Shown here piece by piece: positions 21,408 through 39,585 of a stretch of DNA of 64,000 bases. The translations under genes were made by a program, and so were the position numbers. Every line of letters starts with the position of its first letter. Positions within the stretch are counted from its first letter, which is position 1. Below the pieces are notes generated by a model. It saw only the letters and a list, made by a program, of their open reading frames with translations, had not been told where the DNA came from and searched no databases. Source of the stretch: an uncultured Anaerolineales bacterium (GTDB lineage Bacteria > Chloroflexota > Anaerolineae > B4-G1); contig CAZNRX010000001.1 in assembly GCA_964575455.1 (NCBI GenBank), positions 112,527-176,526 of the forward strand, written 5' to 3'.

Positions 21408-21611
21408 CCGCGTCCCCGCGCCACGGCTGTTGGTCGTGAGGCACGCAGCGCAGTGGCGTGCCGTCTCGATGCGGTCAGTAGAGCCTATCATGCCGCTGCG
21501 GCGTGTGTCTGATCGGCCCGGCGATACCTCTCAAGGATCCCCTGCAGCAGGAGAGAAGTCCCAGACAACCTTAAAGTTTTCCCCATGACTCCGGAAAAGC
21601 CCATAAAGTAC

Positions 21612-21640
21612 TAGCAAAAGCAGCCCGCATGCTGTATAAT
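21612..21640 (+). promoter_or_regulatory. Candidate sigma70-type promoter of the dcw operon (-10 TATAAT at 21635-21640, extended TG; weak -35 TAGCAA at 21612-21617).
   Basis: 'gcTGTATAAT' lies ~90 nt upstream of the mraZ start; 17-bp spacer to TAGCAA. Confidence 0.6.
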
Positions 21641-21641
21641 A

Positions 21642-21676
21642 GTGGGCGATTGTGGGGAGAAGTGGGGCATAGTGGG
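21642..21676 (+). promoter_or_regulatory. MraZ operator: four direct GTGGG repeats at exactly 10-bp spacing, immediately downstream of the -10 box.
   Basis: GTGGG at 21642, 21652, 21662 and 21672. Known MraZ operators are direct GTGGG repeats separated by 5-nt spacers overlapping the Pmra promoter. Confidence 0.8.
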
Positions 21677-21730
21677 ATATCTGCCCTTCGCTATGCTCCT
21701 CTTTTGCGCTCAGGTGGGGATTACGCCGAC

Positions 21731-22159
21731 ATGTTTCTGGGAGAGTTTGTTCACACCCTCGACAGCAAGGGGCGACTGACCGTTCCTGCCAAGTTCCGTG
21801 CGGATCTGGACACGAGCTTGGTGGTCACCCGGTGGATGGATCGCTGCCTGGCGATGTTCCCCATGGCCGAGTGGGAGCAGCTGGCCGCGCGAGTGAGTGA
21901 CCTGCCCATGACCGATCGGCGGGCACGGGCGCTCAAGCGGTTCCTTTTCTCCAGTGCTTCTCATGTCTCTCCTGACAATCAGGGACGTGTTCTCATTCCT
22001 CCCCGTCTGCGCGAATACGCTGGCCTCGACGGCGAGGTCGTCGTAGCTGGTCTCAACAACTACATAGAGATCTGGGGCACCGATGCTTGGGGGGACGAAC
22101 GGGAGCGTGTTGAAGGGGACGATGTCGAAGCTGAGGGTTGGGCGGCGTTGGGTATTTGA
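21731..22159 (+). CDS. mraZ: Transcriptional regulator MraZ.
   Basis: Duplicated 'DxxGR' modules ('[14 protein letters not shown]', '[13 protein letters not shown]'). Start at MFLGEF; the listed ORF begins 34 codons earlier, inside the operator. Confidence 0.9.
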
Positions 22160-23124
22160 TGGATGACACGCGAAGGGAGACGGCTCACATACCCGTGCTT
22201 CCTGATGAGGTCATCGATGGCCTCCAGGCGGAGCGCGGCGGGCGGTTCATCGACTGCACGGTCGGGGGAGGGGGGCACGCCGGCGCGATTCTGGAGGCCT
22301 CGGCTCCCGATGGCGTCTTGCTTGGCCTGGATCTGGATCCAGCGGCGCTGGAAATGGCCTCGGATCGCTTGGCCCGCTTTGGAGATCGGGCTCAGTTCGT
22401 CCATGCCTCTTTCGCCCGGCTGAAGGAGGTAGTGCGGGCTCACGGTTTCGCAGGGGAGCGATCGTGGGTCGATGGGATTCTGTTTGATCTAGGTCTGTCG
22501 TCGCTGCAGCTGGCGGACGCCGAACGTGGCTTCTCGTTCATGGCCGACGGGCCGCTCGACATGCGCTTTGATCCCACCTCGGGCGATCCGACGGCCGCCG
22601 ATCTGGTCAATAAGCTCTCTGAGGAAGAGCTGGCGGACATCTTCTATCACTATGGCGAGGAGAGACAGTCGCGTCGCATTGCCGGGGCCATCGTCGAAGC
22701 GAGACCGCTCCATACCACCGGCGAGCTGGCCCAGGTCGTGGAGCAGGCGGTGGGGAGGCGGCGCGGAAGGCTCCACCCGGCGACGCTCACGTTTCAGGCC
22801 CTGCGGATCGCGGTCAACGAGGAGTTGAACGCCATAAGGTCCGCTTTGCCCCAGGCCGTCGAGCTTCTGGCGCCCGGCGGTCGGTTGGCCGTGATAGCCT
22901 TCCATTCCCTGGAGGATCGCATCGTTAAGCGCTTCATGCGCCGCGAGAGCAAGGATTGCATCTGCCCGCCCGAGTTGCCAATCTGCACCTGTGATCATCA
23001 AGCGACGCTTAACGTGATCACACGAAAGCCTATCAGGCCGACCGAGGAGGAGGTGGCGGCCAACCCTCGTTCTCGTTCGGCTCGACTCCGAGTGGGGGCA
23101 CGTCGCCCAAGGCAGGGGGAGTGA
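22159..23124 (+). CDS. rsmH: 16S rRNA (cytosine1402-N4)-methyltransferase RsmH (MraW).
   Basis: 'HIPVL', '[10 protein letters not shown]' and 'DLGLSS' motifs. The ATG overlaps the mraZ stop (TGATG). Confidence 0.92.
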
Positions 23125-23127
23125 ACA

Positions 23128-23457
23128 TTGTCTGAGTTCCTGGATTGGGTCAGCCACGGCGTGAAGCGGGGACGGCTGGAGCTGGACTCGCGCCCGCTGA
23201 TGGTGCTATTCGCCATCGGCGTCGTGCTGACGCTGGTAGCGGCTCTCTACCTGGGGCTCGTCAGTCGGACCGCGGCGCAGGGGCGTCGCATCGAGCAGCT
23301 GCAGACGGACGTGTTTTGCATGCAGCGCGAGAACCAGCAGCTGGCGGTGGAGATCGCTGAGGCGAGCGCCATCCCCCAGCTCATGGAGCGGGCAAGGGCG
23401 TTGGGCTTTGTGCCTGCGGAGCGGGTGGAGTTTCTGAACGGCGGGAGTAGGGAATAG
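23128..23457 (+). CDS. ftsL: Cell division protein FtsL-like (small bitopic).
   Basis: Single TM followed by a coiled-coil region, at the conserved position between rsmH and ftsI; TTG start. Confidence 0.6.
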   Translation: MSEFLDWVSHGVKRGRLELDSRPLMVLFAIGVVLTLVAALYLGLVSRTAAQGRRIEQLQTDVFCMQRENQQLAVEIAEASAIPQLMERARALGFVPAERVEFLNGGSRE

Positions 23458-23467
23458 GGAGTGGGCC

Positions 23468-25234
23468 ATGGCTGAGGGACCGAGGCGCAGGCTTTTGCTG
23501 ATGATCGCCTTGCTAGCGCTGGCGGTGGTGATCACCGTGGTGCAGCTGGTCAAGGTTCAGATCGTCGATCATGAGTTCTACACCAACTGGGCCAAGGAGC
23601 AGCGCGTGAGGGCGGTCAAGATGGCCCAGCCTCCACGGGGCGCGATTCACGATCGGGATGGATATCTTTTGGCCGGCAACGGGGTCAGGTACGCCATCGA
23701 AGCAGCCCCGGCCTACGTGATGAAGAAGCAAGAGGCGGCGGAGGCGTTGGCGTCGGTGCTGCATATGCCGGCCTCGCATTTGGAGGCCCAGTTAAGCAAG
23801 CGCGGCGAGAACGGGCACTACAAGATGTGGGTTTCCGTGGCTGGGTCCGTCTCCCGGGAGATGGGCGAGGCGGTCACTGAGCTGGACATCGGCGGTATCA
23901 CGGTCAGACCGCTCTGGCAGCGAGTGTATCCTGAGGACTCGCTGGCGTCTCATACGCTGGGCTTTGTCAGCGTGGTGACGGGCTACTATGGCGTCGAGGG
24001 CTTCTACAACGCGATGCTCCAGCCCGAGCCGATCAGATGGGTGGGGCCGGTGGACGTCGAGAGCGTGCCCATTCCTTGGGAGCCTGTCGAGGGGGAGTTC
24101 CCTCGCCGCGGCGTGAATCTGGAGCTGACGCTGGATCGCACGGTGCAGGCGCTGGTGGAGGCCGAGCTGGCACACGCTCTGGAGACGTATCAGGCTGAGT
24201 CGGGGACGATCATCGTCATGGAGCCGGAGACGTTCGGGATTCTAGGCATGGCCAGCCTGCCCAGCTACGATCCTGAGGACTACGCTCGGTTCGCCAATCA
24301 AGAGCCCCTGTTGTTTGAGGATCCGGCGGTGAGCAGGCAGTACGAGCCCGGTTCCGTGTTCAAGATCGTGACGGTGGCGGCAGCGCTGGACAGTGGGACC
24401 GTGATGCCGGACAGCGTCTATCACGATCGGGGCTGGATCGAGGTGGGCGGGCGCGCGATCCATAACGCCTCGCGCCAGTCCTACGGGGATCAGTCGGTGA
24501 TCGACATCCTCGTCAAGTCTCTCAACGTGGGGGCCGCGTGGCTGAGCACGAAGATGGGACCAGACATCTTCTATCAATACGCGCAGGACTTTGGCTTTGG
24601 TGAGATGACTCACGTCGATCTGAACGGAGAGGTGCGAGGTCAGCTGTGGCTGCCGGAGGATGTTGAGGATTGGTCCCCCTCCCATTTGGGGACGAACGCC
24701 TTTGGGCAGGGCGTGGCGGTGACGCCGCTGCAGATGGTCACCGCGATGGCGACCGTGGCCAACGATGGAGCCCGCCTTCGGCCTCACATCGTGCATCGCC
24801 GCGTGGCCTCCGACGGGACCCCGTCGGTCTTCCATCCGGTCTTCCAGGAGCAGGTGCTGGCCCCAGAGACCGCTCGTACGCTCACGGATATGTTGGTGCA
24901 GGTGGTTGAAGAGGGAGCGACCCAGGCCAGGGTGGAGGGATACCGGGTTGCGGGCAAGACCGGCACGGCTCAGATTCCCATCCCGGGCGGCTATGACCCG
25001 GAGGGCGCCATCGCCACATTTGTGGGCTTTGGGCCTGTGCCGGATGCAGGGTCGACGGGCGATTTCGCCCAGGTACCCGAGTTGGTCGTCCTGGTGAAGC
25101 TGGATCGCCCCCAGAGCTCGCCGTGGGCGTCCCAGACGGCGGCGCCGACGTTCCAGCGGCTGACGGCACGGCTGTTCACCATGTTGGGCATCCCGCCCAG
25201 CAGCGGCGAGTTGATGGCGGAGGTGGGACCGTGA
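23468..25234 (+). CDS. ftsI: Peptidoglycan D,D-transpeptidase FtsI (class B PBP).
   Basis: N-terminal TM, dimerisation domain, and transpeptidase motifs (SxxK 'SVFK', SxN, 'KTGT'). Confidence 0.9.
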   Translation: MAEGPRRRLLLMIALLALAVVITVVQLVKVQIVDHEFYTNWAKEQRVRAVKMAQPPRGAIHDRDGYLLAGNGVRYAIEAAPAYVMKKQEAAEALASVLHMPASHLEAQLSKRGENGHYKMWVSVAGSVSREMGEAVTELDIGGITVRPLWQRVYPEDSLASHTLGFVSVVTGYYGVEGFYNAMLQPEPIRWVGPVDVESVPIPWEPVEGEFPRRGVNLELTLDRTVQALVEAELAHALETYQAESGTIIVMEPETFGILGMASLPSYDPEDYARFANQEPLLFEDPAVSRQYEPGSVFKIVTVAAALDSGTVMPDSVYHDRGWIEVGGRAIHNASRQSYGDQSVIDILVKSLNVGAAWLSTKMGPDIFYQYAQDFGFGEMTHVDLNGEVRGQLWLPEDVEDWSPSHLGTNAFGQGVAVTPLQMVTAMATVANDGARLRPHIVHRRVASDGTPSVFHPVFQEQVLAPETARTLTDMLVQVVEEGATQARVEGYRVAGKTGTAQIPIPGGYDPEGAIATFVGFGPVPDAGSTGDFAQVPELVVLVKLDRPQSSPWASQTAAPTFQRLTARLFTMLGIPPSSGELMAEVGP

Positions 25235-26727
25235 CGGGAAAGCGTCTGACGCTGGCGGACGTCCTGGAGGGCCTACGGGTGTCGTCCACCGCCGTCGACC
25301 AGCGGCCTGAGGCGCTGCGGCAAGAGATAACGACCGTCGTCATCGATTCCCGCAACGCCAGGCCCGGGGCCTTGTTCTTCGCCTTCGAGGGCGAGCACGC
25401 GGACGGGCACGACTACGTGGGAGACGCCTTCTCTCGGGGGGCCGTCGCGGCCGTCGTGCAGCGCGACGTGCCCGGGGTTGACGCTCTCACGCTGGATTTG
25501 ACGACCCGGGACGCGAAGGGCACTCGAAGCGCGCTGTCGGGAGGGCTGGAGGTGCCGCTGGTGCTGAAGGTCGATCAGACGCTGCCAGCGCTGCAGCGTC
25601 TGGCCACCTTCTGGCGGCGATGTCAGGTCGGGCTGCGCGTCGTCGGTATCACGGGGAGCGTCGGGAAGACCACCACGAAGGAGCTAGCGGCGGCGGTACT
25701 CGCCCGTCGCTATGCGACGATCAAGAGCGAGGCCAGTTATAACAACGAGATCGGCCTGCCGCTGACGCTGCTCCACGTGACCGCCGACCACGAGCGTGTT
25801 GTGTTGGAGATGGGGATGTATGACCTGGGCGAGATCGCGGATCTCGCTCGCATCGCTCAGCCCCACATCGGCGTGGTTACCATCGTCCGGCCGGTGCATC
25901 TGGAGCGCGCTGGGTCATTCGAGCGCATCGTGAAGGCCAAGACGGAGTTGGTCAGCGCGCTGCCGCCCGGGCCGGAGGGCGTGGCGATCCTGAACTACGA
26001 TGATGAGAACGTGCGGAACATGGCCGGAGCGACGGAGGCTGACGTCTTCACCTACGGGTTGTCTCCCGAGGCTGATCTCTGGGCTGATCAGATCGAGGGG
26101 TTGGGGTTGGAAGGCGTCCGCTTCCGGCTCCATCACGAGGATGAGACCCTCCACGTGAGGGTGCCGCTCCTGGGGCGGCATTCCGTCCACACCTCGCTGC
26201 GCGCCGCCGCGGTTGGCCTGGTCGAGGGGCTCACCTGGCAGGAGATTGTGGAAGGCCTGCGGGGCGTGGAGCCATCGGATCAGCTGCGGCTGGTGGCCGT
26301 GCGAGGCCCGGCCAGCGCCACGATCCTGGACGATACGTACAACGCCAGTCCGGCCTCAACTATCGCGGCACTGAACTTGTTGGACGAGTTGGAGGGGCGA
26401 AAGATCGCTGTCTTGGGCGACATGCTGGAGCTGGGCGACTACGAGCGTGAGGGACACGAGAAGGTCGGGATGCGCGTGCTGGAGGTGGCCGACGTGCTCG
26501 TCACGCTGGGATCGTTAGGGCGCATCATCGGCGAGACCACGCTCCGTTGGGGGATGTCGCCCGACGCCGTCCACGTGTTGGAGGAGAGGGAGGAGGTCGT
26601 TCGCCTGTTGGAGGATATGTTGGAGGAGGATGGGGCGCCGCGATCCGTCGTCTTGGTGAAGGGCTCGCGAGCCCTGAGGATGGAGGAGATCGTCAACTCC
26701 CTGAGTCGCGACCTTCCCGAAGGCTGA
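25231..26727 (+). CDS. murF: UDP-N-acetylmuramoyl-tripeptide--D-alanyl-D-alanine ligase MurF.
   Basis: 'GITGSVGKTTTKE' and 'NNEIGLPLTLL' MurF signatures. The GTG start overlaps the ftsI stop (GTGA). No murE precedes it. Confidence 0.85.
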   Translation: MTGKRLTLADVLEGLRVSSTAVDQRPEALRQEITTVVIDSRNARPGALFFAFEGEHADGHDYVGDAFSRGAVAAVVQRDVPGVDALTLDLTTRDAKGTRSALSGGLEVPLVLKVDQTLPALQRLATFWRRCQVGLRVVGITGSVGKTTTKELAAAVLARRYATIKSEASYNNEIGLPLTLLHVTADHERVVLEMGMYDLGEIADLARIAQPHIGVVTIVRPVHLERAGSFERIVKAKTELVSALPPGPEGVAILNYDDENVRNMAGATEADVFTYGLSPEADLWADQIEGLGLEGVRFRLHHEDETLHVRVPLLGRHSVHTSLRAAAVGLVEGLTWQEIVEGLRGVEPSDQLRLVAVRGPASATILDDTYNASPASTIAALNLLDELEGRKIAVLGDMLELGDYEREGHEKVGMRVLEVADVLVTLGSLGRIIGETTLRWGMSPDAVHVLEEREEVVRLLEDMLEEDGAPRSVVLVKGSRALRMEEIVNSLSRDLPEG

Positions 26728-26755
26728 ACATAAGCTTCCGGGAGAGGTGTTTGAT

Positions 26756-27760
26756 ATGGACAGAGCGCTTATTCTGGCGAGTATCTCGTTTCTGCTGGCG
26801 GTGGTGTGGGGGCCGCTGTTGATCCGCATCCTCCGCCACTACCAGATCGGCAAGCGCATTCGCATCGACGGTCCCAGTGACCACCAGAGCAAGATGGGGA
26901 CGCCAACCATGGGCGGGCTGATGATCGTGGTGCCGGTGCTCCTCATCACGCTCGTGTTGAACATTTACAATCTGTTGGGGCGCACCTTGATCGGACGCTC
27001 AATTCTGGTGCCGCTGGGCGTGATGGTGGCCTACGCTCTGATCGGCGCGATAGATGACTTGGCCGGGGTCCGCGGCGTCCGGCGTGGCCTGGGGCTGACG
27101 GCAGGGCGCAAGCTTCTCTGGGAGATCCCCCTGACGTTGGGCATTGCCGTGTTCATGCTCGTCTCTGATGTCCAGTTCGCGGGGCAAGTCGGCGTGCCGG
27201 GTGTTGCCGAGATGGTCAACGTAGGCTGGGTGTGGGTGCCGCTTGCCATGTTCATCATCCTGAGCTCCGCCAATGCGATGAATCTGACCGACGGGTTGGA
27301 TGGGCTGGCCGGGATCATCGTCGCCAGCGCCTTTGCTGCCTACGGCATCATCGCCCGGCTGCAGGGTCAGTTCTACCTGATTCGCTTCTGCTTCACCGTG
27401 GTGGGGGCCTCCTTTGCGTTCCTTTGGTACAACGCCCATCCGGCCCAGATGTTCATGGGCGATACCGGCAGCCTGGCCCTCGGCGCGACGCTAGGCACGG
27501 TGGCGTTGATGACGGGGCAGTGGCTGCTGCTGCCTGTCGTCATCCTGATTCCAGTGGCGGAGACGCTGTCGGTCATCATCCAGGTGCTCTATTTCAAGTA
27601 CACCAAGCGCCGGTTCGGCCAGGGGAGGCGGGTCTTCAAGATGAGCCCACTCCACCATCATTTTGAGCTGTTAGGCTGGTCCGAGACGCAGGTTGTGCAG
27701 CGCTTCTGGCTGGTGGAGCTCCTGGCGGCGATGGCCGGTGTCGCGTTGGCGCTGCTGTAG
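26756..27760 (+). CDS. mraY: Phospho-N-acetylmuramoyl-pentapeptide transferase MraY.
   Basis: Polytopic; 'DDLAGV', 'NLTDGLDGLA' and 'MGDTGSLALG' motifs. GGAGAGG RBS. Confidence 0.92.
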   Translation: MDRALILASISFLLAVVWGPLLIRILRHYQIGKRIRIDGPSDHQSKMGTPTMGGLMIVVPVLLITLVLNIYNLLGRTLIGRSILVPLGVMVAYALIGAIDDLAGVRGVRRGLGLTAGRKLLWEIPLTLGIAVFMLVSDVQFAGQVGVPGVAEMVNVGWVWVPLAMFIILSSANAMNLTDGLDGLAGIIVASAFAAYGIIARLQGQFYLIRFCFTVVGASFAFLWYNAHPAQMFMGDTGSLALGATLGTVALMTGQWLLLPVVILIPVAETLSVIIQVLYFKYTKRRFGQGRRVFKMSPLHHHFELLGWSETQVVQRFWLVELLAAMAGVALALL

Positions 27761-27857
27761 TGTGCAAGTGGGCGAGCGCCCAAGTGCCAACCAGCGGCGC
27801 TAGGCCAGCGTCCCAACGTCTAGACGTTACAACGTTCAAACGTTCCAACGAGTTGTT

Positions 27858-29309
27858 ATGGAAGGAGAGAGACTGAAGGACCAACACGTGGTGATCCTCG
27901 GCCTGGCCCGTCAGGGGGTGGCGCTGGCCCGTTACCTGACTCAGGTCGGCGCCGAGGTGACGGTTTCCGATCTACAGGACGAGGATACCCTGGCCGACGA
28001 AATGGAACAGCTGGCGGATCTTTCGATACGTTATGCCCTGGGTGGCCATCCGATCCATCTGCTGGACGACGCTGATCTCCTGTGCCTCAGTGGCGGGGTG
28101 CCGTTGGACATACCCATCGTCGAAGCAGCGCGGGAGCGAGGTGTCCCTCTCAGCAACGACGCGCAGATCTTCCTGGATCGCTGCCCGGCGCCCGTCATCG
28201 GCATCACGGGCTCGGCTGGCAAGACGACGACCACGGCGTTGGTGGGCGAGATGTGCCGCGCCGCCGGGCTGCGTACCTGGGTGGGAGGCAACATCGGCAA
28301 TCCGCTCATCACCGACCTGCTGGGCGCGGGGCGGGCCGCGATAGGGCCTGATGACTGCGTGGTGATGGAGCTATCCAGCTTCCAGCTGGAGCTGATGACC
28401 GCCAGCCCCCATATCGCGGCGGTGCTCAACGTCACGCCTAACCACCTGGATCGGCATAAGACGATGGAGGCCTACGTGGCGGCCAAGCAGAACATCTTGG
28501 CGCATCAAACCGGCGCGGACATAGCGCTGCTCGGGTACGATGACGCCAACGCACGGGCTCTGGCCCTGGAGACGCCGGCGCAGCTGTTCTTCTTCAGCAG
28601 TGGCGCCGAGGTGGAGGCGGGGGCGTTCAAGACCAACGGTGAATTGACGCTCCGGATGGGAGGGGAGGATCGCGAGATCTGCAAGGCCTCGCAGGTGAAG
28701 TTGCTGGGCGAGCATAATCTGCTTAACGTACTGGCGGCGAGCGCCTTGGCCAGCCTGGCCGGGGCCCCCTTGGAGGCAATTAGCGAGGTGGCCACCACGT
28801 TCACGGGTGTGGAGCATCGCTTGGAGCTCGTGCAGGAGGTGGCCGGCCCGGACGGCTCGGGCCGCATCCTCTGGTACGACGATTCCATCGCCACGGCTCC
28901 GGAGCGCGTGTTGGCCGCGATGCGTTCGTTTGAGGATACCGGATCGCAGCGGTCGACCATCGTTCTTCTCGCCGGTGGACGGGACAAGGATCTGCCGTGG
29001 GACGCGTTTGCCGAGGAGACGGTCCGTCGCGTGCGGCAGTTGATCACCTTCGGTGAGGCCGGTCCGATGATCGCTAGAGAGGTGGAGGGGAAGACGGGGA
29101 GAGGGGCAGGGCTCGAGGGCATCACGCGTGTGGAGACGCTGGAGGAGGCTGTGGAGGCTGCCGCCCGCCTGGCCGAACCGGGGGACGTGGTGTTGTTCTC
29201 GCCGGGCGGTACCAGCTTTGACGCCTTCAAGGACTTCGCCGAGCGCGGCGATCGATTCAAGGCGCTCGTACGGGAGATCTGCGGGAGGGAGCGGAATCGC
29301 TATGGATAA
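27858..29309 (+). CDS. murD: UDP-N-acetylmuramoylalanine--D-glutamate ligase MurD.
   Basis: 'ILGLARQG' Rossmann N-terminus and 'GITGSAGKTTT' P-loop; ligase C-terminal domain. Confidence 0.9.
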   Translation: MEGERLKDQHVVILGLARQGVALARYLTQVGAEVTVSDLQDEDTLADEMEQLADLSIRYALGGHPIHLLDDADLLCLSGGVPLDIPIVEAARERGVPLSNDAQIFLDRCPAPVIGITGSAGKTTTTALVGEMCRAAGLRTWVGGNIGNPLITDLLGAGRAAIGPDDCVVMELSSFQLELMTASPHIAAVLNVTPNHLDRHKTMEAYVAAKQNILAHQTGADIALLGYDDANARALALETPAQLFFFSSGAEVEAGAFKTNGELTLRMGGEDREICKASQVKLLGEHNLLNVLAASALASLAGAPLEAISEVATTFTGVEHRLELVQEVAGPDGSGRILWYDDSIATAPERVLAAMRSFEDTGSQRSTIVLLAGGRDKDLPWDAFAEETVRRVRQLITFGEAGPMIAREVEGKTGRGAGLEGITRVETLEEAVEAAARLAEPGDVVLFSPGGTSFDAFKDFAERGDRFKALVREICGRERNRYG

Positions 29310-30543
29310 GAGACGTCGAGCGACTGGCCATCCTGACTATGGCCTCATTCTGGTGGTCACGGGCCTGATCATCGTCGGCCTGATGATGGTCTACAGCGCG
29401 ACCTTCGACTGGTCCTATCAGGAGCACGGTAGCTCCTTTCACATCGCCTTCCGGCAACTCCAGTGGGTGCTCATCGGCGTCGTGGTGCTTGTTGTGCTCA
29501 CGCTCGTCCCGTATGAATGGTGGCAGGAGAAGGCCGTGCCCATTATGGGGGGCACGCTGCTTCTGTTGATACTCGTCCTCATTGTGGGGAAGGAGCGCTT
29601 CGGCGCTAAGCGATCTCTGTGGAATGGCTCCATCCATCCCGGGGAGCTGGCGAAGCTGACCCTGGTCATCTACGTCGCTGCCTGGCTCTCCTCCAAGGGC
29701 GACCAGATCCGTCACGTCTCCTATGGCCTGATACCTTTCGCCGTCCTGATCGGCCTGGTGGCCGGTTTGATCGTGGCGCAGCCGGACCTGGGAACCGCCG
29801 TGCTGATCGCGCTGACGTCTTTTGCCGTTTTCTTCTTCGCCGGGGCTGAGATCCTTCAGCTTGCCGGCGGAGGCGTCGTCGCCGTGATCACGTTTCTGTC
29901 TCTGATCAGCAAGTTCCCGCACGCCGCGGATCGTATCACCGAGTGGATCAAGGCGTGGAGGGATCCGGAGCTGGCCGGCTATCACATCCGACAGACCCTG
30001 ATCGCCCTGGGCAGCGGGGGGCCGCTTGGGGTCGGGCTAGGGCAGGGACAGCAGAAACTCGGCTACCTGCCCACGCACCATACCGACGCGATCTTCGCCG
30101 TGCTCGGTGAGGAGACCGGTCTGTTGGGGTGTCTTCTGGTGATTGGGCTGTTTGTCCTGTTTGCCTATCGAGGTTTCAGGATCACGATCGATGCTCGGGA
30201 CCCCTTTGCCGCGCTCCTGGCGTGTGGGGTCACCTGTTGGATCACGTTCCAGGCGCTGATCAACGTGGGCGTTGTGACGGGGTTGCTCCCCTTTACGGGC
30301 ATGGCGCTGCCGTTTATCAGCTCTGGTGGCTCCGGGATGGTCACCTCACTGGCCGGCGTGGGGTTGTTGCTCAGCGTTTCACGCGGCCGAAGCACCAGCA
30401 GAGTCACGAATGGACGGACGTCAAGGATGTTCGACAGGCGGGAGGAGAGTCGTCAGTATGCGAGTCTGGATCGCCGGTGGGGGAACAGGGGGACACGTGT
30501 ATCCCGGCCTCGCCGTCGTGCAGGCACTTCGCGCCGAGAATGA
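29302..30543 (+). CDS. ftsW: SEDS-family peptidoglycan glycosyltransferase FtsW.
   Basis: ~10 TM and 'GLPFISSGGSG'-type SEDS motifs. The ATG overlaps the murD end. The C-terminal ~28 codons overlap murG in another frame, so the true stop may be earlier. Confidence 0.8.
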   Translation: MDKRRRATGHPDYGLILVVTGLIIVGLMMVYSATFDWSYQEHGSSFHIAFRQLQWVLIGVVVLVVLTLVPYEWWQEKAVPIMGGTLLLLILVLIVGKERFGAKRSLWNGSIHPGELAKLTLVIYVAAWLSSKGDQIRHVSYGLIPFAVLIGLVAGLIVAQPDLGTAVLIALTSFAVFFFAGAEILQLAGGGVVAVITFLSLISKFPHAADRITEWIKAWRDPELAGYHIRQTLIALGSGGPLGVGLGQGQQKLGYLPTHHTDAIFAVLGEETGLLGCLLVIGLFVLFAYRGFRITIDARDPFAALLACGVTCWITFQALINVGVVTGLLPFTGMALPFISSGGSGMVTSLAGVGLLLSVSRGRSTSRVTNGRTSRMFDRREESRQYASLDRRWGNRGTRVSRPRRRAGTSRRE

Positions 30544-31633
30544 TGACGCTGGCGTCGGCGCCCGTCCCCGGGCCGACATAGACGTCACCTACATCGGCGG
30601 AGAAGGAGGCATTGAGGAGACACTGGCCAAGCGGGCGGATGTTCGCTTCGTCGGCATTCCGGCCGGCGGTGTGCACGGTCTGGCGCCGTGGCGGGCGGTA
30701 CAGAACCTTTTCAAGTTGATTCGCGGCTGGTGGGCTGCCTACCGGCTTGGGCGTCGAGCCCCTGTGCGCCCATCGGCGCTCTTCGCCACCGGCGGCTACG
30801 CCAGCGTGCCCGTGGCGCTGGCGGCCTGGATGCTGCGCGTGCCCATTCTCGTCTACCTGCCCGACGTGGAGCCAGGGCTCGCCGTTCGCTTCATCGCCCG
30901 GCTGGCGTCGAAGGTTGCGGTCACGGTGGAGGACTCGCGGGCCTACTTCCCTGACCACAAGGTTGTGGTGAGCGGGTACCCGGTGCGGGCGGCCTTCCGG
31001 CGCATCCAGAGTGACGTGGGGCAGGTGGAGGCGCGGCGAACGCTGGGGCTGGCATCCCTGGCTCTGCAGGGGTCTGTGACCCCTGACGAGGATCCTGTCC
31101 TTCTCGTCATGGGCGGGAGCCGTGGGGCGCGCAGCATCAATCGCGCCTTGAGTGAGATTCTGGAGCAGGTACTGGAGATGGCGCAGGTGATACATTTGAC
31201 TGGCGAGCTGGATTGGGACTGGGCCTCCGAGCAGCGGGACGCGCTGCCCGCACGGCTGCGGGAGCGCTATGCTGCCTTTCCCTACCTGCACGAGATGGGG
31301 TATGCGCTGACCACTGCGGATCTCGCGCTCTGTCGGGCGGGAGCCTCGACCCTGGGGGAGCTTCCCTTCTTCGGGCTGCCCGCCATTCTGGTGCCGTACC
31401 CGCACGCATGGCGCTATCAGCGGGTGAACGCGGCATGGTTGACGGAGCGAAGGGCGGCGGTCACGTTGAGGGATGAGCGCTTGGAGGACGACTTGCTTTC
31501 GACACTGCGGAATCTCTTGACGGACGAAGAACGGCTGGCGCAGATGGGGGATCGGGCTCGGGCGCTCTCTCGGCCCGATGCAGCGGCTCGTCTGGCGGAG
31601 GCCTTCCTTAACACGAAGATCACGAAACCCTAG
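30458..31633 (+). CDS. murG: Undecaprenyldiphospho-muramoylpentapeptide beta-N-acetylglucosaminyltransferase MurG.
   Basis: 'WIAGGGTGGHVYPGLAV' GT28 N-terminus. GGAGGAGAG RBS at 30441-30449. Confidence 0.9.
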   Translation: MRVWIAGGGTGGHVYPGLAVVQALRAENDDAGVGARPRADIDVTYIGGEGGIEETLAKRADVRFVGIPAGGVHGLAPWRAVQNLFKLIRGWWAAYRLGRRAPVRPSALFATGGYASVPVALAAWMLRVPILVYLPDVEPGLAVRFIARLASKVAVTVEDSRAYFPDHKVVVSGYPVRAAFRRIQSDVGQVEARRTLGLASLALQGSVTPDEDPVLLVMGGSRGARSINRALSEILEQVLEMAQVIHLTGELDWDWASEQRDALPARLRERYAAFPYLHEMGYALTTADLALCRAGASTLGELPFFGLPAILVPYPHAWRYQRVNAAWLTERRAAVTLRDERLEDDLLSTLRNLLTDEERLAQMGDRARALSRPDAAARLAEAFLNTKITKP

Positions 31634-31643
31634 GTGGTGTGAC

Positions 31644-32168
31644 ATGATGCCCTTGGACACAGCTTTGTTCACCTTCGTCTTGCTCTTCGGCCTGATGGGT
31701 GCTTTGCGAGGATGGTCAAAGGAGATGCTTGTGCTTTTCAGCGTCATCCTGGCGCTGGCCGTGCGCCTCATCTTCAGCCAGTACGTTCCCATTGCCAGGG
31801 AGTTCTTCGATCGTCCCCCGGTGGAGCAGTTCTATCTCTACTCCGGGTTGATTATCCTCATGGCCATCGCCGGCTACGCCGGCCCCGCGGTCTCGGGGCG
31901 ACTGGCCGGTGTCTCCGCGCGCGAGACGCTTCAGGACATCATGTTGGGATTCATCATCGGTGCGCTCAACGGCTTTCTGATCGTCGGCTCGATCTGGTAC
32001 TTCTTGGACGCCGCTGGCTACGGCGTCTTGGGGATCGCCGAGCCGGCACCGGGTTCACTGGCCGCGGCGATAGCCATCAAGTACCTGCCGCCTTTGTGGC
32101 TGTCCGACGCCGTCTTGTTGACCGTTTTCTCTTTCGCATCGGTCTTCGTCATCATTGTGCTCGTTTAG
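31644..32168 (+). CDS. CvpA-family (colicin V production-like) membrane protein inserted in the dcw cluster.
   Basis: 4-TM protein; 'FGLMGALRGWSKEMLVLFSV' resembles the CvpA N-terminal motif. Confidence 0.5.
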   Translation: MMPLDTALFTFVLLFGLMGALRGWSKEMLVLFSVILALAVRLIFSQYVPIAREFFDRPPVEQFYLYSGLIILMAIAGYAGPAVSGRLAGVSARETLQDIMLGFIIGALNGFLIVGSIWYFLDAAGYGVLGIAEPAPGSLAAAIAIKYLPPLWLSDAVLLTVFSFASVFVIIVLV

Positions 32169-32181
32169 CAGTGGAAGAGGC

Positions 32182-33672
32182 ATGTCCGATATCTCTGACA
32201 AGCACGTTCATTTGATAGGCATCGGCGGAGCGGGCCTTTCGGCAATCGCGCGCGTGCTGTTGGAGCAGGGCGCCGCGGTCTCTGGATCTGATCTGGTCGT
32301 CTCGCCGGTAGCGCAGGCTTTGGCGCGCGATGGCGCCTTGGTCTGCGAGGGGCACGATGCCGAGAACGTCACACGCTGGCGGCACGCTGTCGACGTGGTC
32401 GTCGCCTCCTCGGCCGTCCCGGAGGACAACGTGGAGATTCAGGCAGCGCGTGCCTACAGTATCCCCGTCTTTAGGCGGCCTGCCTTTCTTGGCCAGATGA
32501 TGGAGGGGAAGCAAGGCGTGGCGGTGGCCGGCACGCACGGCAAGACGACCACGACGGCCATGGTCGCCGTTATCCTGTTGGAGGCTGGCTGCGATCCCAC
32601 CTTCATCGTCGGTGGTGTGCTGGCCGACCTGAAGACGAACGCCCGGGCTGGCGACGGCCCACTGTTCTTGATAGAGGCCGATGAGTATGACCGCACGTTT
32701 CTCAGCTTGAAGCCCGACCTGGCCGTGATCACCAACGTGGAGCACGACCATCCGGACTGCTATCCCACGTTCGACGACTTTCGGTCGGCGTTCGAGTCGT
32801 TTGCGGCCCTGGTACCAGGCGGAGGCCTGCTGGCCGTCTGTGTGGACGATCCCGTGGCGCGCGCCATCGGACAGGGTCGCGCCCAGCTCGCGGAGTCTCG
32901 CCCAGCTCGTGGCGCGTCTCGCAACGACGAGCTCGCAGAGCCGGAGGGCCCCCCGTCGGTCAGGTTCTTTGGGCTGGGCGAGGGGGCGACCTGGCGGGCG
33001 GAGGAGATCCATGCCAACTTTGCCGGTGGCGTCGATTTCCTGGCTGTCCACCGCGACGAGACGCTGGGCCTGGTGCGGCTTCGCGTGCCCGGGGGCCATA
33101 ACGCCTCCAATGCGATGGCGGCTTTGGCGGTGACGGATTTCCTGGGCGTTCCCTTTCGTGTAGCACGAGAGGCGTTAACTGGCTTCCGGGGGGTTGCGCG
33201 CCGCTTCGAGGTCAAGGGAATGGTGGATGGCGTGGTGGTGATCGATGATTATGCTCATCATCCCACCGAGATTCGAGCCACCCTGCGGGCCGCCAAGGAG
33301 CGTTTCCCGGAGCGGCGGATCTGGGCAGTATGGCAGCCGCACACGTACAGCCGCACCAAGGAGCTGCTGGATGGGTTTGCGTCGTCGTTTGACGATGCTG
33401 ATCGCGTCGTCGTGCTCCCCATCTACCCAGCTCGCGAGACCGATACGCTGGGGGTCAGTGCTGGCGACGTCGTGGACGCTATGGATCATGCGGCGTCGGC
33501 GCCGGTCGATGCGCGTGTTGCGGGGTCGATGGACGCGGCGATGGACGAGCTGCGGGCCGCCGTGCAGTCGGGCGACGTGGTGCTGACGCTTGGCGCGGGC
33601 GATGGCGATCAGGTTGGCGAACGGTTGCTGGCTTGGCTGGGAGGGAAGCGTGATGTTCTGGAAGATGGGTGA
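32182..33672 (+). CDS. murC: UDP-N-acetylmuramate--L-alanine ligase MurC.
   Basis: 'HLIGIGGAGLSAIA' and 'GTHGKTTTT' motifs. Has a ~25-aa low-complexity insertion ('AQLAESRPARGASRNDELAEPEGPP'). Confidence 0.9.
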   Translation: MSDISDKHVHLIGIGGAGLSAIARVLLEQGAAVSGSDLVVSPVAQALARDGALVCEGHDAENVTRWRHAVDVVVASSAVPEDNVEIQAARAYSIPVFRRPAFLGQMMEGKQGVAVAGTHGKTTTTAMVAVILLEAGCDPTFIVGGVLADLKTNARAGDGPLFLIEADEYDRTFLSLKPDLAVITNVEHDHPDCYPTFDDFRSAFESFAALVPGGGLLAVCVDDPVARAIGQGRAQLAESRPARGASRNDELAEPEGPPSVRFFGLGEGATWRAEEIHANFAGGVDFLAVHRDETLGLVRLRVPGGHNASNAMAALAVTDFLGVPFRVAREALTGFRGVARRFEVKGMVDGVVVIDDYAHHPTEIRATLRAAKERFPERRIWAVWQPHTYSRTKELLDGFASSFDDADRVVVLPIYPARETDTLGVSAGDVVDAMDHAASAPVDARVAGSMDAAMDELRAAVQSGDVVLTLGAGDGDQVGERLLAWLGGKRDVLEDG

Positions 33673-33888
33673 GGATCATCAGGAGGGCGGATCACTGATA
33701 GGGCGCTTGAGGGGGGTGCGCAAGCGGAAGCGGAGCCGGTCGGCGGGTGACCGTGACCCGGGTGGCGGTGTCGATCCCTATGCCTGCAGCGTGGTGGCGT
33801 CCAAGATGAAGCTGGTGAAGGCTGGGCGGAGGCGCGATGCCGGCCGGCGGCGGGATCTCCGTGGCTGACCAGCGACAGCGCCTCGGCG

Positions 33889-34854
33889 ATGAGGGGGCGT
33901 TCAGTGGATGACGCAGTGACCGCCTCGGCGGGTGCAGCGCAGCACGTCCCCGAACCGGCCGCACTGGATGCCCTGGCCGAAGCGCTGGGGCCGCGCGTGC
34001 AGCGGGGGGTGCGGCTGGCGCGTTTCATCGCGATGGGCGTCGGCGGGCCGGCCGATCTCTTGACGGTCGTCGAGAGCTCGGATGGTCTGGCTCGCGCGGT
34101 TGGAGCGGCCCGGCGACACGCCGTCCCCTTCCGGGTGCTGGGCGGCGGCTGCAACGTGCTGGTCGCCGATCAAGGCGTGCGAGGGTTGGTGATTGTCAAT
34201 CGGGCGGCGTCCGTCTCGTTCGAGGACGGTGTGGTACACGCGGAGTCTGGGATGAAGCTGGCCTTTCTGGCGCGAAAGGCGGTCGATAGCGGTCTGGGCG
34301 GTTTGGCCTGGGCTGCTGGCCTGCCGGGTACCGTCGGTGGGGCTGTCGTGGGGAACGCGGGTGCCTTCGATGGCGACATTGCGGGCACGCTGCGCAGCGG
34401 TGCGGTGCTGGAGCCCAATGGCGAGGTTGTGGAGAGGGAGAACGCGTGGTTTGACTTCGCCTATCGCAGCAGTCGGCTCAAGGGGGACGCCGTCACCCGG
34501 CACGTGGTGCTGGCGGCTGCGTTTGAGCTGGAGCCGGGCGAGAGGGCCGCGTTGAGGGCGCGAGCCGACGAGGTGTTGGCATGGCGCAGGGCACACCATC
34601 CCTCGGGCGCTACGATGGGCTCGACGTTCAAGAACTCACCGGATCACTACGCCGGACAGCTCGTCGAACAGGCGGGCCTGAAGGGTTATCGCGTTGGTGG
34701 GGCCAGGATCTCGGAGCAGCACGCCAATTTTCTGATCAACGATGGGGACGCCACGGCCAGCGATGTGTTGGCTCTCATCGAGCACGCTCAGGCAGAGGTG
34801 GCGCGGCAGTTTGGCGTGGAGCTTGCGCTGGAGATCGAGTTGCTGGGCTGGTGA
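33889..34854 (+). CDS. murB: UDP-N-acetylenolpyruvoylglucosamine reductase MurB.
   Basis: FAD-binding 'MGVGGPADLL' and 'LGGGCNVLV' motifs. The start is uncertain because the reading frame stays open upstream. Confidence 0.85.
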   Translation: MRGRSVDDAVTASAGAAQHVPEPAALDALAEALGPRVQRGVRLARFIAMGVGGPADLLTVVESSDGLARAVGAARRHAVPFRVLGGGCNVLVADQGVRGLVIVNRAASVSFEDGVVHAESGMKLAFLARKAVDSGLGGLAWAAGLPGTVGGAVVGNAGAFDGDIAGTLRSGAVLEPNGEVVERENAWFDFAYRSSRLKGDAVTRHVVLAAAFELEPGERAALRARADEVLAWRRAHHPSGATMGSTFKNSPDHYAGQLVEQAGLKGYRVGGARISEQHANFLINDGDATASDVLALIEHAQAEVARQFGVELALEIELLGW

Positions 34855-34913
34855 ACACGAAGTGTACGAAACATGACACGAAGTGCGCGAATGCGGGGAG
34901 GGAGGATCTGTTG

Positions 34914-36086
34914 ATGCGCAGGATCCGTGTGGGGGTTATCTTCGGTGGGTGTTCAGGGGAGCATGAGGTGTCGCTTCAGTCTGCCCGGTCCGTTATGGAC
35001 GCCATGGACAAGGAGAAGTATGAGGTCGTGCCCGTCGGTATCACCAAAGATGGCCGCTGGATCGCGTCAGGCGACCCGATGCGAGCTCTGAGGACCGGAG
35101 ATTTCAGCGCCAGCCAGCCCGCCGCGCTGCTGAGCGATCCCGGGTCGACGGGCGATCTCGCCCAGGTAGCCGGTTCAACGCAGTCCCCGCGGCAGAGATT
35201 GATGCGTCTTGATGAGAGAGGCCAGGCGATAGAAGCGACCCCGCTGGCGCAGCTCGACGTCGTCTTCCCGGTCCTTCATGGACCCTATGGCGAGGACGGC
35301 ACCGTCCAGGGCCTGCTTGAGTTGGCCGGGCTTCCCTACGTCGGCGCCCCGGTGACCGCCTCTGCGGTGGCGATGGATAAGGTGATCTTCAAGGACGTGA
35401 TGCGCGCGCACGGGTTGCCCATTGTGGAGCACGTGATGGTGAAGCGCAAGACGTGGGAGGCCGATCCCGAGAGCATCCTGGCCCAGGTCGAGGAGCGGTT
35501 TGCGTATCCGGTCTTCACCAAGCCAGCCAATCTTGGGTCGAGCGTCGGCATCTCCAAGTGTCACGAACGGGCCGGGTTAGGGGCTGGCCTGCGGGAGGCG
35601 GCCCGCTACGACCGGAAGCTGCTCGTCGAGCCGGCTGTGCCAGCGGCACGAGAGATTGAGGTCAGCGTCCTGGGCAATGATGATCTGGTCGCTTCCGTTC
35701 CTGGGGAGATCGTCCCCAGCCGCGAGTTCTACAGCTACGAGGCCAAGTACATGGACGTCGGCGAGGAGGCCTCCGATCTGTTGATCCCCGCCCCCCTCTC
35801 TCCAGAGATGACCCGGCGCGTGCAGGATATCGCGGTGCAGACCTACCGCGCTATCGACTGCGCCGGTATGGCGCGCGTCGATTTCCTGCTCTCGGGCGAG
35901 ACAGAGGCGTTGTACGTGAACGAGGTTAATACCATCCCTGGCTTCACCAGCATCAGCATGTACCCTAAGCTGTGGGAGGCCAGCGGTCTGCCCTACCCGG
36001 AGCTGATCGATCGCTTGATTGAGCTGGCGCTCGAGCGCCAGCGCGATAAGGCCCGCATAGAGATATCGTATCGAACCGGGGAGTGA
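34914..36086 (+). CDS. ddl: D-alanine--D-alanine ligase.
   Basis: 'IRVGVIFGGCSGEHEVSLQSA' N-terminus and ATP-grasp motifs. GGGAGGGAGGA RBS at 34896-34906. The listed ORF's first 111 codons overlap murB and the repeat array and are not coding. Confidence 0.88.
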   Translation: MRRIRVGVIFGGCSGEHEVSLQSARSVMDAMDKEKYEVVPVGITKDGRWIASGDPMRALRTGDFSASQPAALLSDPGSTGDLAQVAGSTQSPRQRLMRLDERGQAIEATPLAQLDVVFPVLHGPYGEDGTVQGLLELAGLPYVGAPVTASAVAMDKVIFKDVMRAHGLPIVEHVMVKRKTWEADPESILAQVEERFAYPVFTKPANLGSSVGISKCHERAGLGAGLREAARYDRKLLVEPAVPAAREIEVSVLGNDDLVASVPGEIVPSREFYSYEAKYMDVGEEASDLLIPAPLSPEMTRRVQDIAVQTYRAIDCAGMARVDFLLSGETEALYVNEVNTIPGFTSISMYPKLWEASGLPYPELIDRLIELALERQRDKARIEISYRTGE

Positions 36087-36090
36087 GTCC

Positions 36091-36981
36091 ATGACCAAGT
36101 CTTGGAGTCCCAACACGAAGCGCAGCCGCAGGCGGAGCGATAGACGCTACGACAGAGGTGGAGCGGTGGTCCTGAATCGCGTGAAGCTCGGTCAGGCGCC
36201 GGTCTCTCTGCACAGAATCCGCTGGACGCAGCGAGGGCTTTGGATGCTCCTGGCCTTGGCCATCCTGGGGGGCGCGTTGGGGCTATGGCTCACCGTGGAC
36301 GCTCGCTTCTACATCTACGATGCGGAGATCGTCGGCAACCGTCGTCTGTCGCACCAGGAGGTCTTCGAGGCCAGTGGGCTATGGGGGCTGCACATTCTCT
36401 GGGCTCGATCCGCGACCATCGAGTCACGAATCCTGGAAGCGTTGCCCTCGCTGGAGAGCGTCACGACCAGCTGCAGCTTGCCCTCGGCGTGCACCATCTC
36501 CGTCGTGGAGCGCCGGCCTCGCGTCCTGTGGGATGAGCGGTCTGGGGCCTCGGGTGGGCTTTGGTGGATCGACGAGGAGGGTGCCATCTTCCCCGGGACG
36601 GCGTCTGTTCCCGTCCAGGATGATGGGGCCGGTACGGGCGGCCTGGAGGGCGCTGCCGGGGGATGGATGGTGACTGGCCCCCTGCCGCGCGAGGAGGGGC
36701 AGGTCCAGGACCATCTTGACGAACAGGTGCGCGTGGCGTTGACCGAGTTGTGGGAGAGCGGGAGAGATCTGTCAACGGCGTTTCAGTACTCCCCCGAGCA
36801 CGGATTGAGCTTCGTTGATGAACACGGATGGCGCATCATTGTGGGACGAGGACCTGGGATGGCTCGTCGTCTACAGGCCTTGGAGCTCTTGGTGGCGCAT
36901 CTCGAATCGCGCGACGTGACGCCTCGCTTTGTGGATGTGCGGTTTGCAGAAGCGCCCTACTACGTGCCTGCAGCGGAGTAA
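36091..36981 (+). CDS. ftsQ: Cell division protein FtsQ/DivIB (POTRA domain).
   Basis: Basic cytoplasmic N-terminus, single TM 'LWMLLALAILGGALGLWL', then a POTRA-like domain; conserved position before ftsA. Confidence 0.75.
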   Translation: MTKSWSPNTKRSRRRSDRRYDRGGAVVLNRVKLGQAPVSLHRIRWTQRGLWMLLALAILGGALGLWLTVDARFYIYDAEIVGNRRLSHQEVFEASGLWGLHILWARSATIESRILEALPSLESVTTSCSLPSACTISVVERRPRVLWDERSGASGGLWWIDEEGAIFPGTASVPVQDDGAGTGGLEGAAGGWMVTGPLPREEGQVQDHLDEQVRVALTELWESGRDLSTAFQYSPEHGLSFVDEHGWRIIVGRGPGMARRLQALELLVAHLESRDVTPRFVDVRFAEAPYYVPAAE

Positions 36982-37075
36982 AACGGGACACGAAAGGCGC
37001 GAAGAACGACACGAAAGGCGCAAAGCACGACGCGAAGGACGCGAAGGATGAAGGGCACGAATGGGGTGCAGACCG
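36982..37075 (+). repeat. Phased CACGAA-type direct-repeat array (21-bp units 'gacacgaaaggcgcgaagaac' x2 plus degenerate copies) in the ftsQ-ftsA gap.
   Basis: Units at 36988-37008 and 37009-37029 differ by 2 nt, then 'gacgcgaaggacgcgaaggatgaagggcacgaatgg'. CGAA cores recur every 10-11 bp. Confidence 0.85.
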
Positions 37076-37116
37076 CAGAGGTGAAGCGCCTTTTCTGAAG
37101 TGGGGAGTGTAGAGCC

Positions 37117-38337
37117 GTGGAACGAACGGTAGTCGGTATCGATGTCGGCTCCAGCAAAATATGCACGATGGTGGGAGAGGTCCGTGATAACGGCGACCTG
37201 CGTGTCGTCGGCGTTGGCCTGGTCACGGCGCGTGGCCTGCGCAAGGGCGTGGTGGTCAACGTGGATGAGGCCACGGAGGCACTCGCCGCCTCGGTCGCTG
37301 AGGCCGAGCGCTCCTCCGGGTACAAGCTTGAGCGGGCCTATGTGAGCGTCAGCGGCGAGCACATCTCATCGCTAAACAGCCAGGGTGTGGTCGGTGTCTC
37401 CCATCGCCGTTCAGGCATCACCATCGATGACGTGGAGAGGGCGCTGGACGCCGCTTGTGCCATCACGGTGTCGCACAACCAGGAGGTCATCCACGTGATC
37501 CCGCGTGGCTACGTGGTCGACGGGCAGGGCGGCGTGCAGGATCCCATCGGCATGCACGGCTTCCGCCTGGAGGTTGAGGCTCACCTCGTCACGGCCTCCT
37601 CCACGGCGATCCAGAATCTGTTGAAGTGCGTACGTCAGGCCGGCCTGGAGGCCGACGAGGTCGTCTCGGCGGGGATAGCCGCTGGCGACGCCGTCCTGGC
37701 GGAGACGGAGCGTGAGATGGGGGTGGTGCTAGCCGATATCGGCGCTGGTACCACCGACGTGGCTATCTTCATCGATGGCACTGTGTGGCACACGGTCACG
37801 CTGGGCATCGGTGGCGCCTACGTCACACAGGACATCGCCATCGGGCTTCGTCTGCCTCCGTCTGTCGCTGAGGAGATCAAGGTGAAGCACGGACATGCCC
37901 TTCCGACTCAGGTGGACAACGACGAGGTGTTCACCGTCTCCTCCTTCGGCGACGAGTTCAGCCAGGAGGTGCCGCGGTGGAAGCTGGCCAGCATCGTTCA
38001 GGCGCGGGCTGAGGAGATTCTCTCCATGATCAACAAGGAGATCAAGCGCTCGGGGTACGACGGCCTGCTGCCGGCCGGCGTGGTGCTCTCCGGTGGCACA
38101 GCGCAGCTCCTCGGCATGCGAACCCTGGGGCGGCAAGTGCTCGGCCTGCCTGTGCGCCTGGGCAGCCCCAGGAACCTCCATGGCCTGGTCGATGCCGTCA
38201 GCAACCCGGCGCACGCCGTGGGGGCGGGATTGTTGACCTGGGGGAGCACGGAGGAGGCCCGTCCACAGCTCAAGGTCCGGCCCGGGCCTGGCGGCGGGGC
38301 GCGCATCCTCAAATGGCTGCGGACGTTGCTTCCGTAA
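37117..38337 (+). CDS. ftsA: Cell division protein FtsA.
   Basis: 'VVGIDVGSSKI' actin-fold phosphate-1 motif and 'DIGAGTTDVAIF' phosphate-2 motif. Confidence 0.92.
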   Translation: MERTVVGIDVGSSKICTMVGEVRDNGDLRVVGVGLVTARGLRKGVVVNVDEATEALAASVAEAERSSGYKLERAYVSVSGEHISSLNSQGVVGVSHRRSGITIDDVERALDAACAITVSHNQEVIHVIPRGYVVDGQGGVQDPIGMHGFRLEVEAHLVTASSTAIQNLLKCVRQAGLEADEVVSAGIAAGDAVLAETEREMGVVLADIGAGTTDVAIFIDGTVWHTVTLGIGGAYVTQDIAIGLRLPPSVAEEIKVKHGHALPTQVDNDEVFTVSSFGDEFSQEVPRWKLASIVQARAEEILSMINKEIKRSGYDGLLPAGVVLSGGTAQLLGMRTLGRQVLGLPVRLGSPRNLHGLVDAVSNPAHAVGAGLLTWGSTEEARPQLKVRPGPGGGARILKWLRTLLP

Positions 38338-38430
38338 CGCGAAGGGCACGAAACAGAAGACGAAGAGCGTGAAATAGAGCACGAAGGGCACGAAGCACGA
38401 AACACACGAAACACTATGGGCACGAGATAG
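38338..38430 (+). repeat. Second phased CACGAA/CGAAG repeat array (ftsA-ftsZ intergenic region).
   Basis: 'cgcgaagggcacgaaacagaagacgaagagcgtgaaatagagcacgaagggcacgaagcacgaaacacacgaaacac' with cores spaced ~10 bp. Confidence 0.85.

Positions 38431-38508: not shown

Positions 38509-39585
<1,077 letters not shown>

Follow-up and report, generated by a model that had tools for sequence, protein, structure and literature searches.

Upstream of the mraZ gene of an uncultured Anaerolineae lineage, the pentamer GTGGG occurs four times in tandem on the strand of the gene, which raises the question of whether these repeats form the operator through which MraZ controls the dcw (mra) operon. That MraZ regulates its own gene via GTG(G/T) repeats at a 10-bp phase is firmly known from several phyla, and for that reason the locus does not open a new question. 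Its value is that the mraZ start, the dcw promoter and the operator can be firmly annotated in this lineage, and it adds Chloroflexota to the phyla in which an array of MraZ boxes can be read directly from the DNA.

mraZ and the dcw cluster

The window, by which we refer to the whole stretch of 64,000 nucleotides that was analysed, contains mraZ at the head of a series of genes encoded on the same strand:

Positions 21731 to 22159, plus strand: mraZ, 142 amino acids beginning MFLGEF (PF02381, 4.8e-35).
Positions 22159 to 39585, plus strand: the rest of the dcw cluster, from Pfam matches and ORFs, with the order rsmH, FtsL-like small ORF, class B PBP, murE, mraY, murD, ftsW and murG, followed by a small membrane-protein ORF, murC, murB, ddl, ftsQ, ftsA and ftsZ.

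The closest proteins to this MraZ, with 68-94% identity, come from metagenome-assembled genomes of Anaerolineae/Chloroflexota. They place the organism in the class Anaerolineae, and the guess of a Chloroflexota genome made in the preliminary description was therefore right. The protein aligns from residue 1 and without gaps with the MraZ chains of Mycoplasma pneumoniae and M. genitalium (1n0e, 9qlr; ~1e-21). This residue-for-residue agreement of the N-terminus with the solved structures and with homologues of 142 amino acids confirms the start at 21731 that had been proposed earlier.

With regard to the residues involved in DNA recognition, the cryo-EM characterisation of the M. genitalium MraZ-operator complex (2026) has revealed that K13, R15 and R86 contact bases of the TG(T/G) signature, while D11 and D82 keep the arginines in position, and single alanine mutants of K13, R15 or R86 each lose DNA binding (PMC12957436). 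All of D11, K13, R15, D82 and R86 are present in the window MraZ and are invariant in an alignment of 17 homologues. They lie in two DXXXR motifs, D11-S-K13-G-R15 and D82-N-Q-G-R86, which are among the features by which an MraZ operator locus is recognised.

The dcw cluster extends over 17.9 kb from mraZ through ftsZ, which ends at 39585, with all genes on the plus strand. The boxes described below are located upstream of mraZ, which is followed by rsmH and then by the cluster down to ftsZ, an arrangement that is likewise part of the definition of an MraZ operator locus. The start codon of rsmH (Methyltransf_5, 2.6e-113) overlaps the mraZ stop codon (TGATG, 22157-22161), and the terminator-like matches inside the cluster are not above chance (4 found vs 8.7 expected). 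Internal promoters would fit into the gaps of 100-216 bp before murD, murB, ftsA and ftsZ, and transcription of the cluster as a single unit is thus only plausible. Accordingly, from the earlier proposal of an ~18-kb dcw transcription unit beginning at 21731, the same-strand gene cluster is confirmed by Pfam matches and ORFs, and the single transcript stays a plausible reading. Within the cluster, no murF was seen between murE and mraY (25123-27760, plus strand), and a membrane-protein ORF of ~175-196 amino acids fills the apparent gap between murG and murC (31578-32168, plus strand).

The upstream neighbour of mraZ is an Fe-alcohol dehydrogenase gene that ends at 21407. Since this gene is also found on the plus strand, no divergent promoter confuses the picture. 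A 7-bp GC-rich inverted repeat, GGCACGC-9 nt-GCGTGCC, lies 33 nt past the dehydrogenase stop codon (21440-21462, plus strand) and is not accompanied by a T-run. The terminator scan made no call at this repeat, which may be a terminator-like hairpin that parts the dehydrogenase gene from the mraZ promoter.

Box array, promoter and leader

The region from -200 to +15 of mraZ was aligned across 15 loci, namely the window and 14 Anaerolineae loci with MraZ proteins that are 63-94% identical. The elements recognised in the window between the promoter and the gene are the following:

Positions 21612 to 21617, plus strand: -35-like hexamer TAGCAA, 17 bp from the -10, with T21612 and G21614 invariant.
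Positions 21635 to 21640, plus strand: -10 element TATAAT, abutting the TG at 21633-21634; GTATAAT is invariant in 15/15 aligned loci.
Positions 21642 to 21646, plus strand: putative MraZ box 1, GTGGG, over the discriminator, with the predicted transcription start site (TSS) just 3' of it.
Positions 21652 to 21656, plus strand: putative MraZ box 2, GTGGG; TGTGG is invariant or nearly so in the 15 loci.
Positions 21662 to 21666, plus strand: putative MraZ box 3, GTGGG; TGG is invariant and the first base is G in 13/15 loci.
Positions 21672 to 21676, plus strand: putative MraZ box 4, GTGGG; AGTGG is invariant in the 15 loci and the fifth base is G in 8/15.
Positions 21712 to 21719, plus strand: purine-rich, Shine-Dalgarno-like element AGGTGGGG, with a fifth GTGGG, in a conserved block.

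Direct reading of the sequence bears out the four GTGGG copies with an exact 10-bp period right after the -10 element, as they had been described previously; box 1 starts 1 nt after TATAAT, and the distance from the end of box 4 to the mraZ ATG is 55 nt. In published work, MraZ operators are characterised by three or more direct repeats of a GTG(G/T) core with a 10-bp period, i.e. with 6 nt between the 4-nt cores (PMC12957436; 10.1101/2022.02.09.479790), and this pattern is present here. Statistically, the array is not random. When GTGGG-N5-GTGGG-N5-GTGGG was searched on both strands with up to one mismatch, the array was the sole site in the 64-kb window, with two overlapping matches, against an expectation of 0.01 per window (mean of 100 shuffles). 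The pentamer itself is found 99 times on the plus strand and 86 times on the minus strand of the window, where no run other than the array has at least two GTGGG at 10-bp spacing or at least three at any spacing of 6-15 bp. From the frequencies of GTGGG, four in-phase copies would be expected by chance ~7e-7 times per window.

A relaxed triple-GTGG search for other MraZ targets in the window returned only a one-mismatch match at 36544-36577, inside the ftsQ coding sequence, which is no evidence of a regulon site. Separately, on the minus strand, positions 41320-41375 lie between the end of the minus-strand ORF 41409-42062 and the promoter of an aminotransferase gene, and contain a 10-bp inverted repeat (CATATGGGGT ... 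ACCCCATATG) that could be a terminator hairpin. This repeat is followed by TGGGG-type G-runs (ATGGGG, GTGGGG 10 bp on, then TTGGGG), which are unconvincing as an MraZ array owing to their irregular spacing.

The putative promoter may be of the sigma-70 type, with a -10 that matches the consensus at 6/6 positions and a spacer of 17 bp, which falls in the 16-18 bp range of such promoters. The -35 hexamer matches TTGACA at only 3/6 positions, which is why a consensus promoter scan makes no call, and the promoter assignment thus rests on conservation and not on that scan. In the relatives, the hexamer reads TGGACA, TAGACA or TAGCCA, with positions 1, 3 and 6 conserved; the 15 loci share a -35-like pattern T-R-G-N-N-A located 17 bp upstream of the -10, in which the A is nearly invariant (A21617 is conserved in at least 90% of them). 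The preliminary description had considered the -10 to be of the extended type, which could not be upheld, because the TG at -14/-13 abuts the hexamer (gcTGTATAAT) and the canonical TGnTATAAT requires it at -15/-14. Nevertheless, the G of this dinucleotide is invariant and the T is found in 14/15 loci; selection therefore acts on the TG, though in a role other than that of a canonical extended -10. The position of the -10 predicts a TSS at ~21647-21649.

The fifth GTGGG, at 21714, was absent from the earlier account; it follows box 4 by 42 bp and precedes the ATG by 17 nt. In the relatives, the block at 21712-21719 takes the form (C/G)GTGGGG(G)A, while locus L011 has AGAGGAGAA (GAGGAG) at that place and L010 lacks GTGG there, both of which disfavour this copy as a distal operator box. 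The element AGGTGGGG, including the fifth GTGGG, is probably a ribosome-binding site and not a fifth operator box. In several of the related loci (L002, L005 and L006), at about -20 from the mraZ start, the Shine-Dalgarno-like sequence GTGGGGGA is preceded by its complement, resulting in the palindrome CCCACGTGGG. The window reads CTCAGGTGGGG in its place, and the palindrome is not conserved there.

Conservation of the boxes

In the 15-locus alignment, the invariant or near-invariant non-coding columns are GTATAAT, the T and the G of the -35, and the GTGG cores of boxes 2-4. The per-box counts show that the GTGG cores are kept in the orthologous loci while the spacers drift, another of the properties that define the MraZ operator. 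Box 1 is the least conserved in the relatives, where it reads GTGG, ATGG, TTGG or GTGA, and the functional array may therefore comprise three boxes and a weak one. When the 60 ten-base units are pooled, their consensus is W-A/T-G-T-G-G-G-G-n-R. Furthermore, in L082-L084 an extra gene is present between the dehydrogenase gene and mraZ and the promoter-operator module is unchanged, which indicates that the module travels with mraZ. Judged by its sequence, the window array possesses every feature expected of the MraZ operator family.

The survey was extended to the 78 loci whose upstream sequence was long enough; they belong to Chloroflexota (Anaerolineae, Caldilineae, Chloroflexia, Thermomicrobia and Limnocylindria), Bacillota (Brevibacillus and Alicyclobacillus) and Patescibacteria. 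At least three GTGG in exact 10-bp phase were found within -250 to -1 of mraZ in 52/78 loci, compared with 0/2628 control windows of 250 bp drawn from the surveyed loci themselves; about one third of the loci are devoid of an exact-phase array of at least three within 250 bp of mraZ. The deep conservation of the array that had been suggested is hence borne out across three phyla, although this is not a discovery, as it has already been stated in the literature (PMC12957436).

Four or five boxes are present in 12 loci, including those of Chloroflexus (L073), Thermomicrobium (L043) and the Ardenticatenaceae type (L018-L021). Arrays of four or more are found in several Chloroflexota lineages, namely the clade of the window, L018-L021, L043, L073 and L015. 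The Chloroflexus array begins directly after TATAAT, and in some other Chloroflexota loci, for example L025, L026 and L048, the -10 is embedded in or flanked by boxes (GTGGtgtataatGTGG). Boxes placed in this manner fit promoter occlusion.

The anatomy of the sequence, its non-random nature, the in-register conservation of the boxes, and the identity of MraZ and of its contact residues are all direct observations of this analysis. The contact residues and the in-register boxes, together with the enrichment across phyla and the likeness to E. coli discussed below, support the reading of the repeats as an MraZ operator put forward in the preliminary description.

Proposed mechanism and alternative explanations

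The region is very probably the promoter-operator through which the dcw (mra) operon is autoregulated, with repression by MraZ via the four boxes. With regard to MraZ binding, cooperativity, repression and the TSS, the mechanism proposed here is modelled on the work in E. coli, B. subtilis and Mycoplasma. The sigma-70-type promoter (TAGCAA, 17 bp, TATAAT) would direct transcription from the predicted start, and the four boxes, one helical turn apart and on one face of the DNA, would span roughly -6 to +30. MraZ would act as a ring oligomer, four adjacent subunits of which would bind the boxes cooperatively, each inserting a beta-sheet 'cradle' (K13, R15 and R86, with the support of D11 and D82) into successive major grooves, where the cradle would read the TG(G/T) core. 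MraZ on the boxes would mask the start site along with the early part of the transcribed region, and RNA polymerase would be blocked, excluded or trapped. In this way, negative feedback would act on mraZ itself, on rsmH and on the division and cell-wall genes further downstream.

It is improbable that the boxes are a genuine MraZ site from which MraZ activates the dcw promoter, or acts on it both ways. Activation has a precedent in M. gallisepticum, where MraZ is reported as an activator upon overexpression, as cited in PMC12957436. However, the boxes of the window extend from 1 nt past the -10 to ~+30, a location that is typical of repressors and incompatible with class I/II activation, and the equivalent position is repressive in E. 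coli (according to its annotation), B. subtilis and M. genitalium.

The repeats could also be bound by a different factor, or represent a tandem repeat without regulatory function that arose by chance or slippage, but both are very unlikely. The conservation of the GTGG cores and not of the spacers is the opposite of what a recent tandem duplication leaves behind, the array co-occurs with mraZ across three phyla, and in the cryo-EM structure MraZ reads a sequence that agrees with the core (PMC12957436).

Selection of the four G-runs as a G-quadruplex, whether formed by non-template DNA or by the RNA of the 5' leader, or as part of another structure of that RNA, appears exceedingly unlikely. 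The window does fit the canonical pattern G3+N1-7 x4 (GGGCGATTGTGGGGAGAAGTGGGGCATAGTGGG), as does the E. coli leader if its Shine-Dalgarno G-run is counted. Nonetheless, the motif is kept in only 5/15 close relatives and 9/83 loci, for which reason the G-quadruplex was rejected as a selected feature; moreover, it is GTGG that is conserved and not a run of at least three G, as also seen in the variable fifth base of box 4, and the Mycoplasma boxes read GTGT (PMC12957436). As for other structures, the single-sequence fold of the leader is no better than that of shuffles (z = -1.05), RNAalifold on the 15 leaders gives a consensus of -3.4 kcal/mol with almost no covariation, and the leader has no Rfam match at E <= 1, results on which a leader RNA structure or riboswitch was rejected.

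Finally, the notion that the repeats encode an N-terminal extension of MraZ from the ATG at 21629 has next to no probability and was rejected: the frame is open from there into mraZ (a 176-aa ORF, 21629-22159) and several database homologues measure 163-175 amino acids, as some gene callers annotate them, but in-frame stops occur between the boxes and the start in relatives (L081, L084, L001, L002, L005 and L008; the 94%-identical L081 has TAG at -60), their leaders carry single-base indels, most homologues have 142 amino acids and the solved structures align from residue 1, i.e. M21731.

Additional elements around the mraZ promoter

A further conserved element is found upstream of the MraZ-repressed promoter proposed above:

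Positions 21567 to 21579, plus strand: A/T-rich element AACCTTAAAGTTT, a conserved, aligned block in the relatives that lies 32 nt ahead of the -35.

Across loci, this element takes the form AACCTTAAA(G/A)TTT. Between -130 and -173 relative to the mraZ start, 20 related loci (L001-L004, L006, L008-L011, L013, L014, L024, L028, L030, L036, L078 and L081-L084) carry the sequence CTTAAARTT, compared with a single occurrence elsewhere (~400 kb, both strands). In these 20 loci, the element is hardly found anywhere but 45-85 bp ahead of the box array, and some loci have two copies ~20-25 bp from each other; the window contains a degenerate proximal copy at ~21590-21603. The element could be UP-like or serve as a site for another factor. 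A more elaborate reading, in which it represents a second, undescribed input into the dcw promoter of Anaerolineae besides MraZ (the site of a division regulator and not a passive UP element) and the TG before the -10 is a degenerate fifth half-site, is unlikely, although not negligibly so. The TG as a fifth MraZ half-site (TGT) would let MraZ compete directly with sigma for the -10.

A weaker second copy of the element, AATCTTAAAGTTC, with two mismatches, is found on the minus strand at 41258-41270. It is located 39 nt upstream of a good promoter, TTGACG-17-TAGAAT, of a class I/II aminotransferase gene (39949-41187, minus strand). With up to two mismatches allowed, the 13-mer matches only 21567-21579 and 41258-41270 in the window, where 0.10 matches are expected.

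Additionally, a LexA-type (Cheo-box-like) palindrome, (A)GAAC-N4-GTTC(T), was observed in 22/82 related loci vs 5 in 395 kb elsewhere. It is located either in the mraZ leader after the MraZ boxes, for instance at -52 (L025), -42 (L016), -24 (L022) or -65 (L048) from the mraZ start, or exactly across the start codon (GAACATATGTTC), for instance at -6 in L012, L024, L028, L030, L033, L036 and L056. No LexA box was found anywhere in the 64-kb window. LexA sites upstream of mraZ have been reported in human gut metagenomes (PMC3998124), and in Chloroflexota a box of this type would make the dcw operon a direct target of SOS control.

Comparison with known MraZ systems

In E. coli MG1655 (NC_000913), where MraZ is annotated as a repressor, the region upstream of mraZ reads TTGACA-17-TAAACT-7-GTGGGaaattGTGGGgcaaaGTGGG. 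This promoter, Pmra (mraZ1p), shares with the window the GTGGG core and the 10-bp period, and even the spacers are similar (GTGGGaaattGTGGGgcaaaGTGGG vs GTGGGcgattGTGGGgagaaGTGGGgcataGTGGG in the window). However, E. coli has three boxes, direct GTGGG repeats with 5-nt spacers, and the window four, and the first E. coli box starts 7 nt after the -10 (TAAACT), compared with 1 nt in the window. The strength of the promoter elements is also inverted, since E. coli combines a consensus -35, TTGACA, with a weak -10, whereas the window combines a weak -35 with a consensus -10.

In B. subtilis, the MraZ-binding repeats, termed MBRs, consist of three GTGG[A/T]G repeats with 4-nt spacers and are needed for repression, which is abolished by the MraZ substitutions R15A or R86A (10.1101/2022.02.09.479790). 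As in the window, a GTGG core recurs with a 10-bp period at the Pmra promoter, and just as the array has no second copy in the 64-kb window, the B. subtilis genome contains the triple repeat only once. The two systems differ in the number of boxes, three in B. subtilis and four in the window, and in the fifth base, which is A or T in the former and G in the latter.

A similar layout is also found in M. genitalium, whose operator comprises four boxes, AAAGTGT-N3 x3 followed by AAAGTGG; box 1 contains the TSS and comes just after the -10 (PMC12957436). When these boxes are mutated one by one, binding and repression are progressively abolished (PMC12957436), and the operon is de-repressed in mraZ mutants. 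The window likewise has four boxes with a 10-bp period and a -10 directly before box 1, and its predicted TSS is also in or next to this box. Each core is preceded by A-rich base(s) in M. genitalium, and in the window by A/T at both preceding positions in most units (WAGTGG); the pooled unit resembles the AAAGTG(T/G) unit of Mollicutes. Furthermore, K13, R15, R86, D11 and D82 of M. genitalium MraZ are identical in the window MraZ. The cores differ, being GTGT in M. genitalium and GTGG(G) in the window, which belongs to a high-GC genome.

Across diverse bacteria, three GTG(G/T) boxes with 6-nt spacers have been described, and four boxes have been presented as a peculiarity of some Mycoplasma (PMC12957436). 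The survey shows that four or more boxes also occur outside this genus, and that the boxes of Chloroflexota lie directly against the -10 element or enclose it. Both features lend support to the published suggestion that the structural mechanism described for M. genitalium is general.
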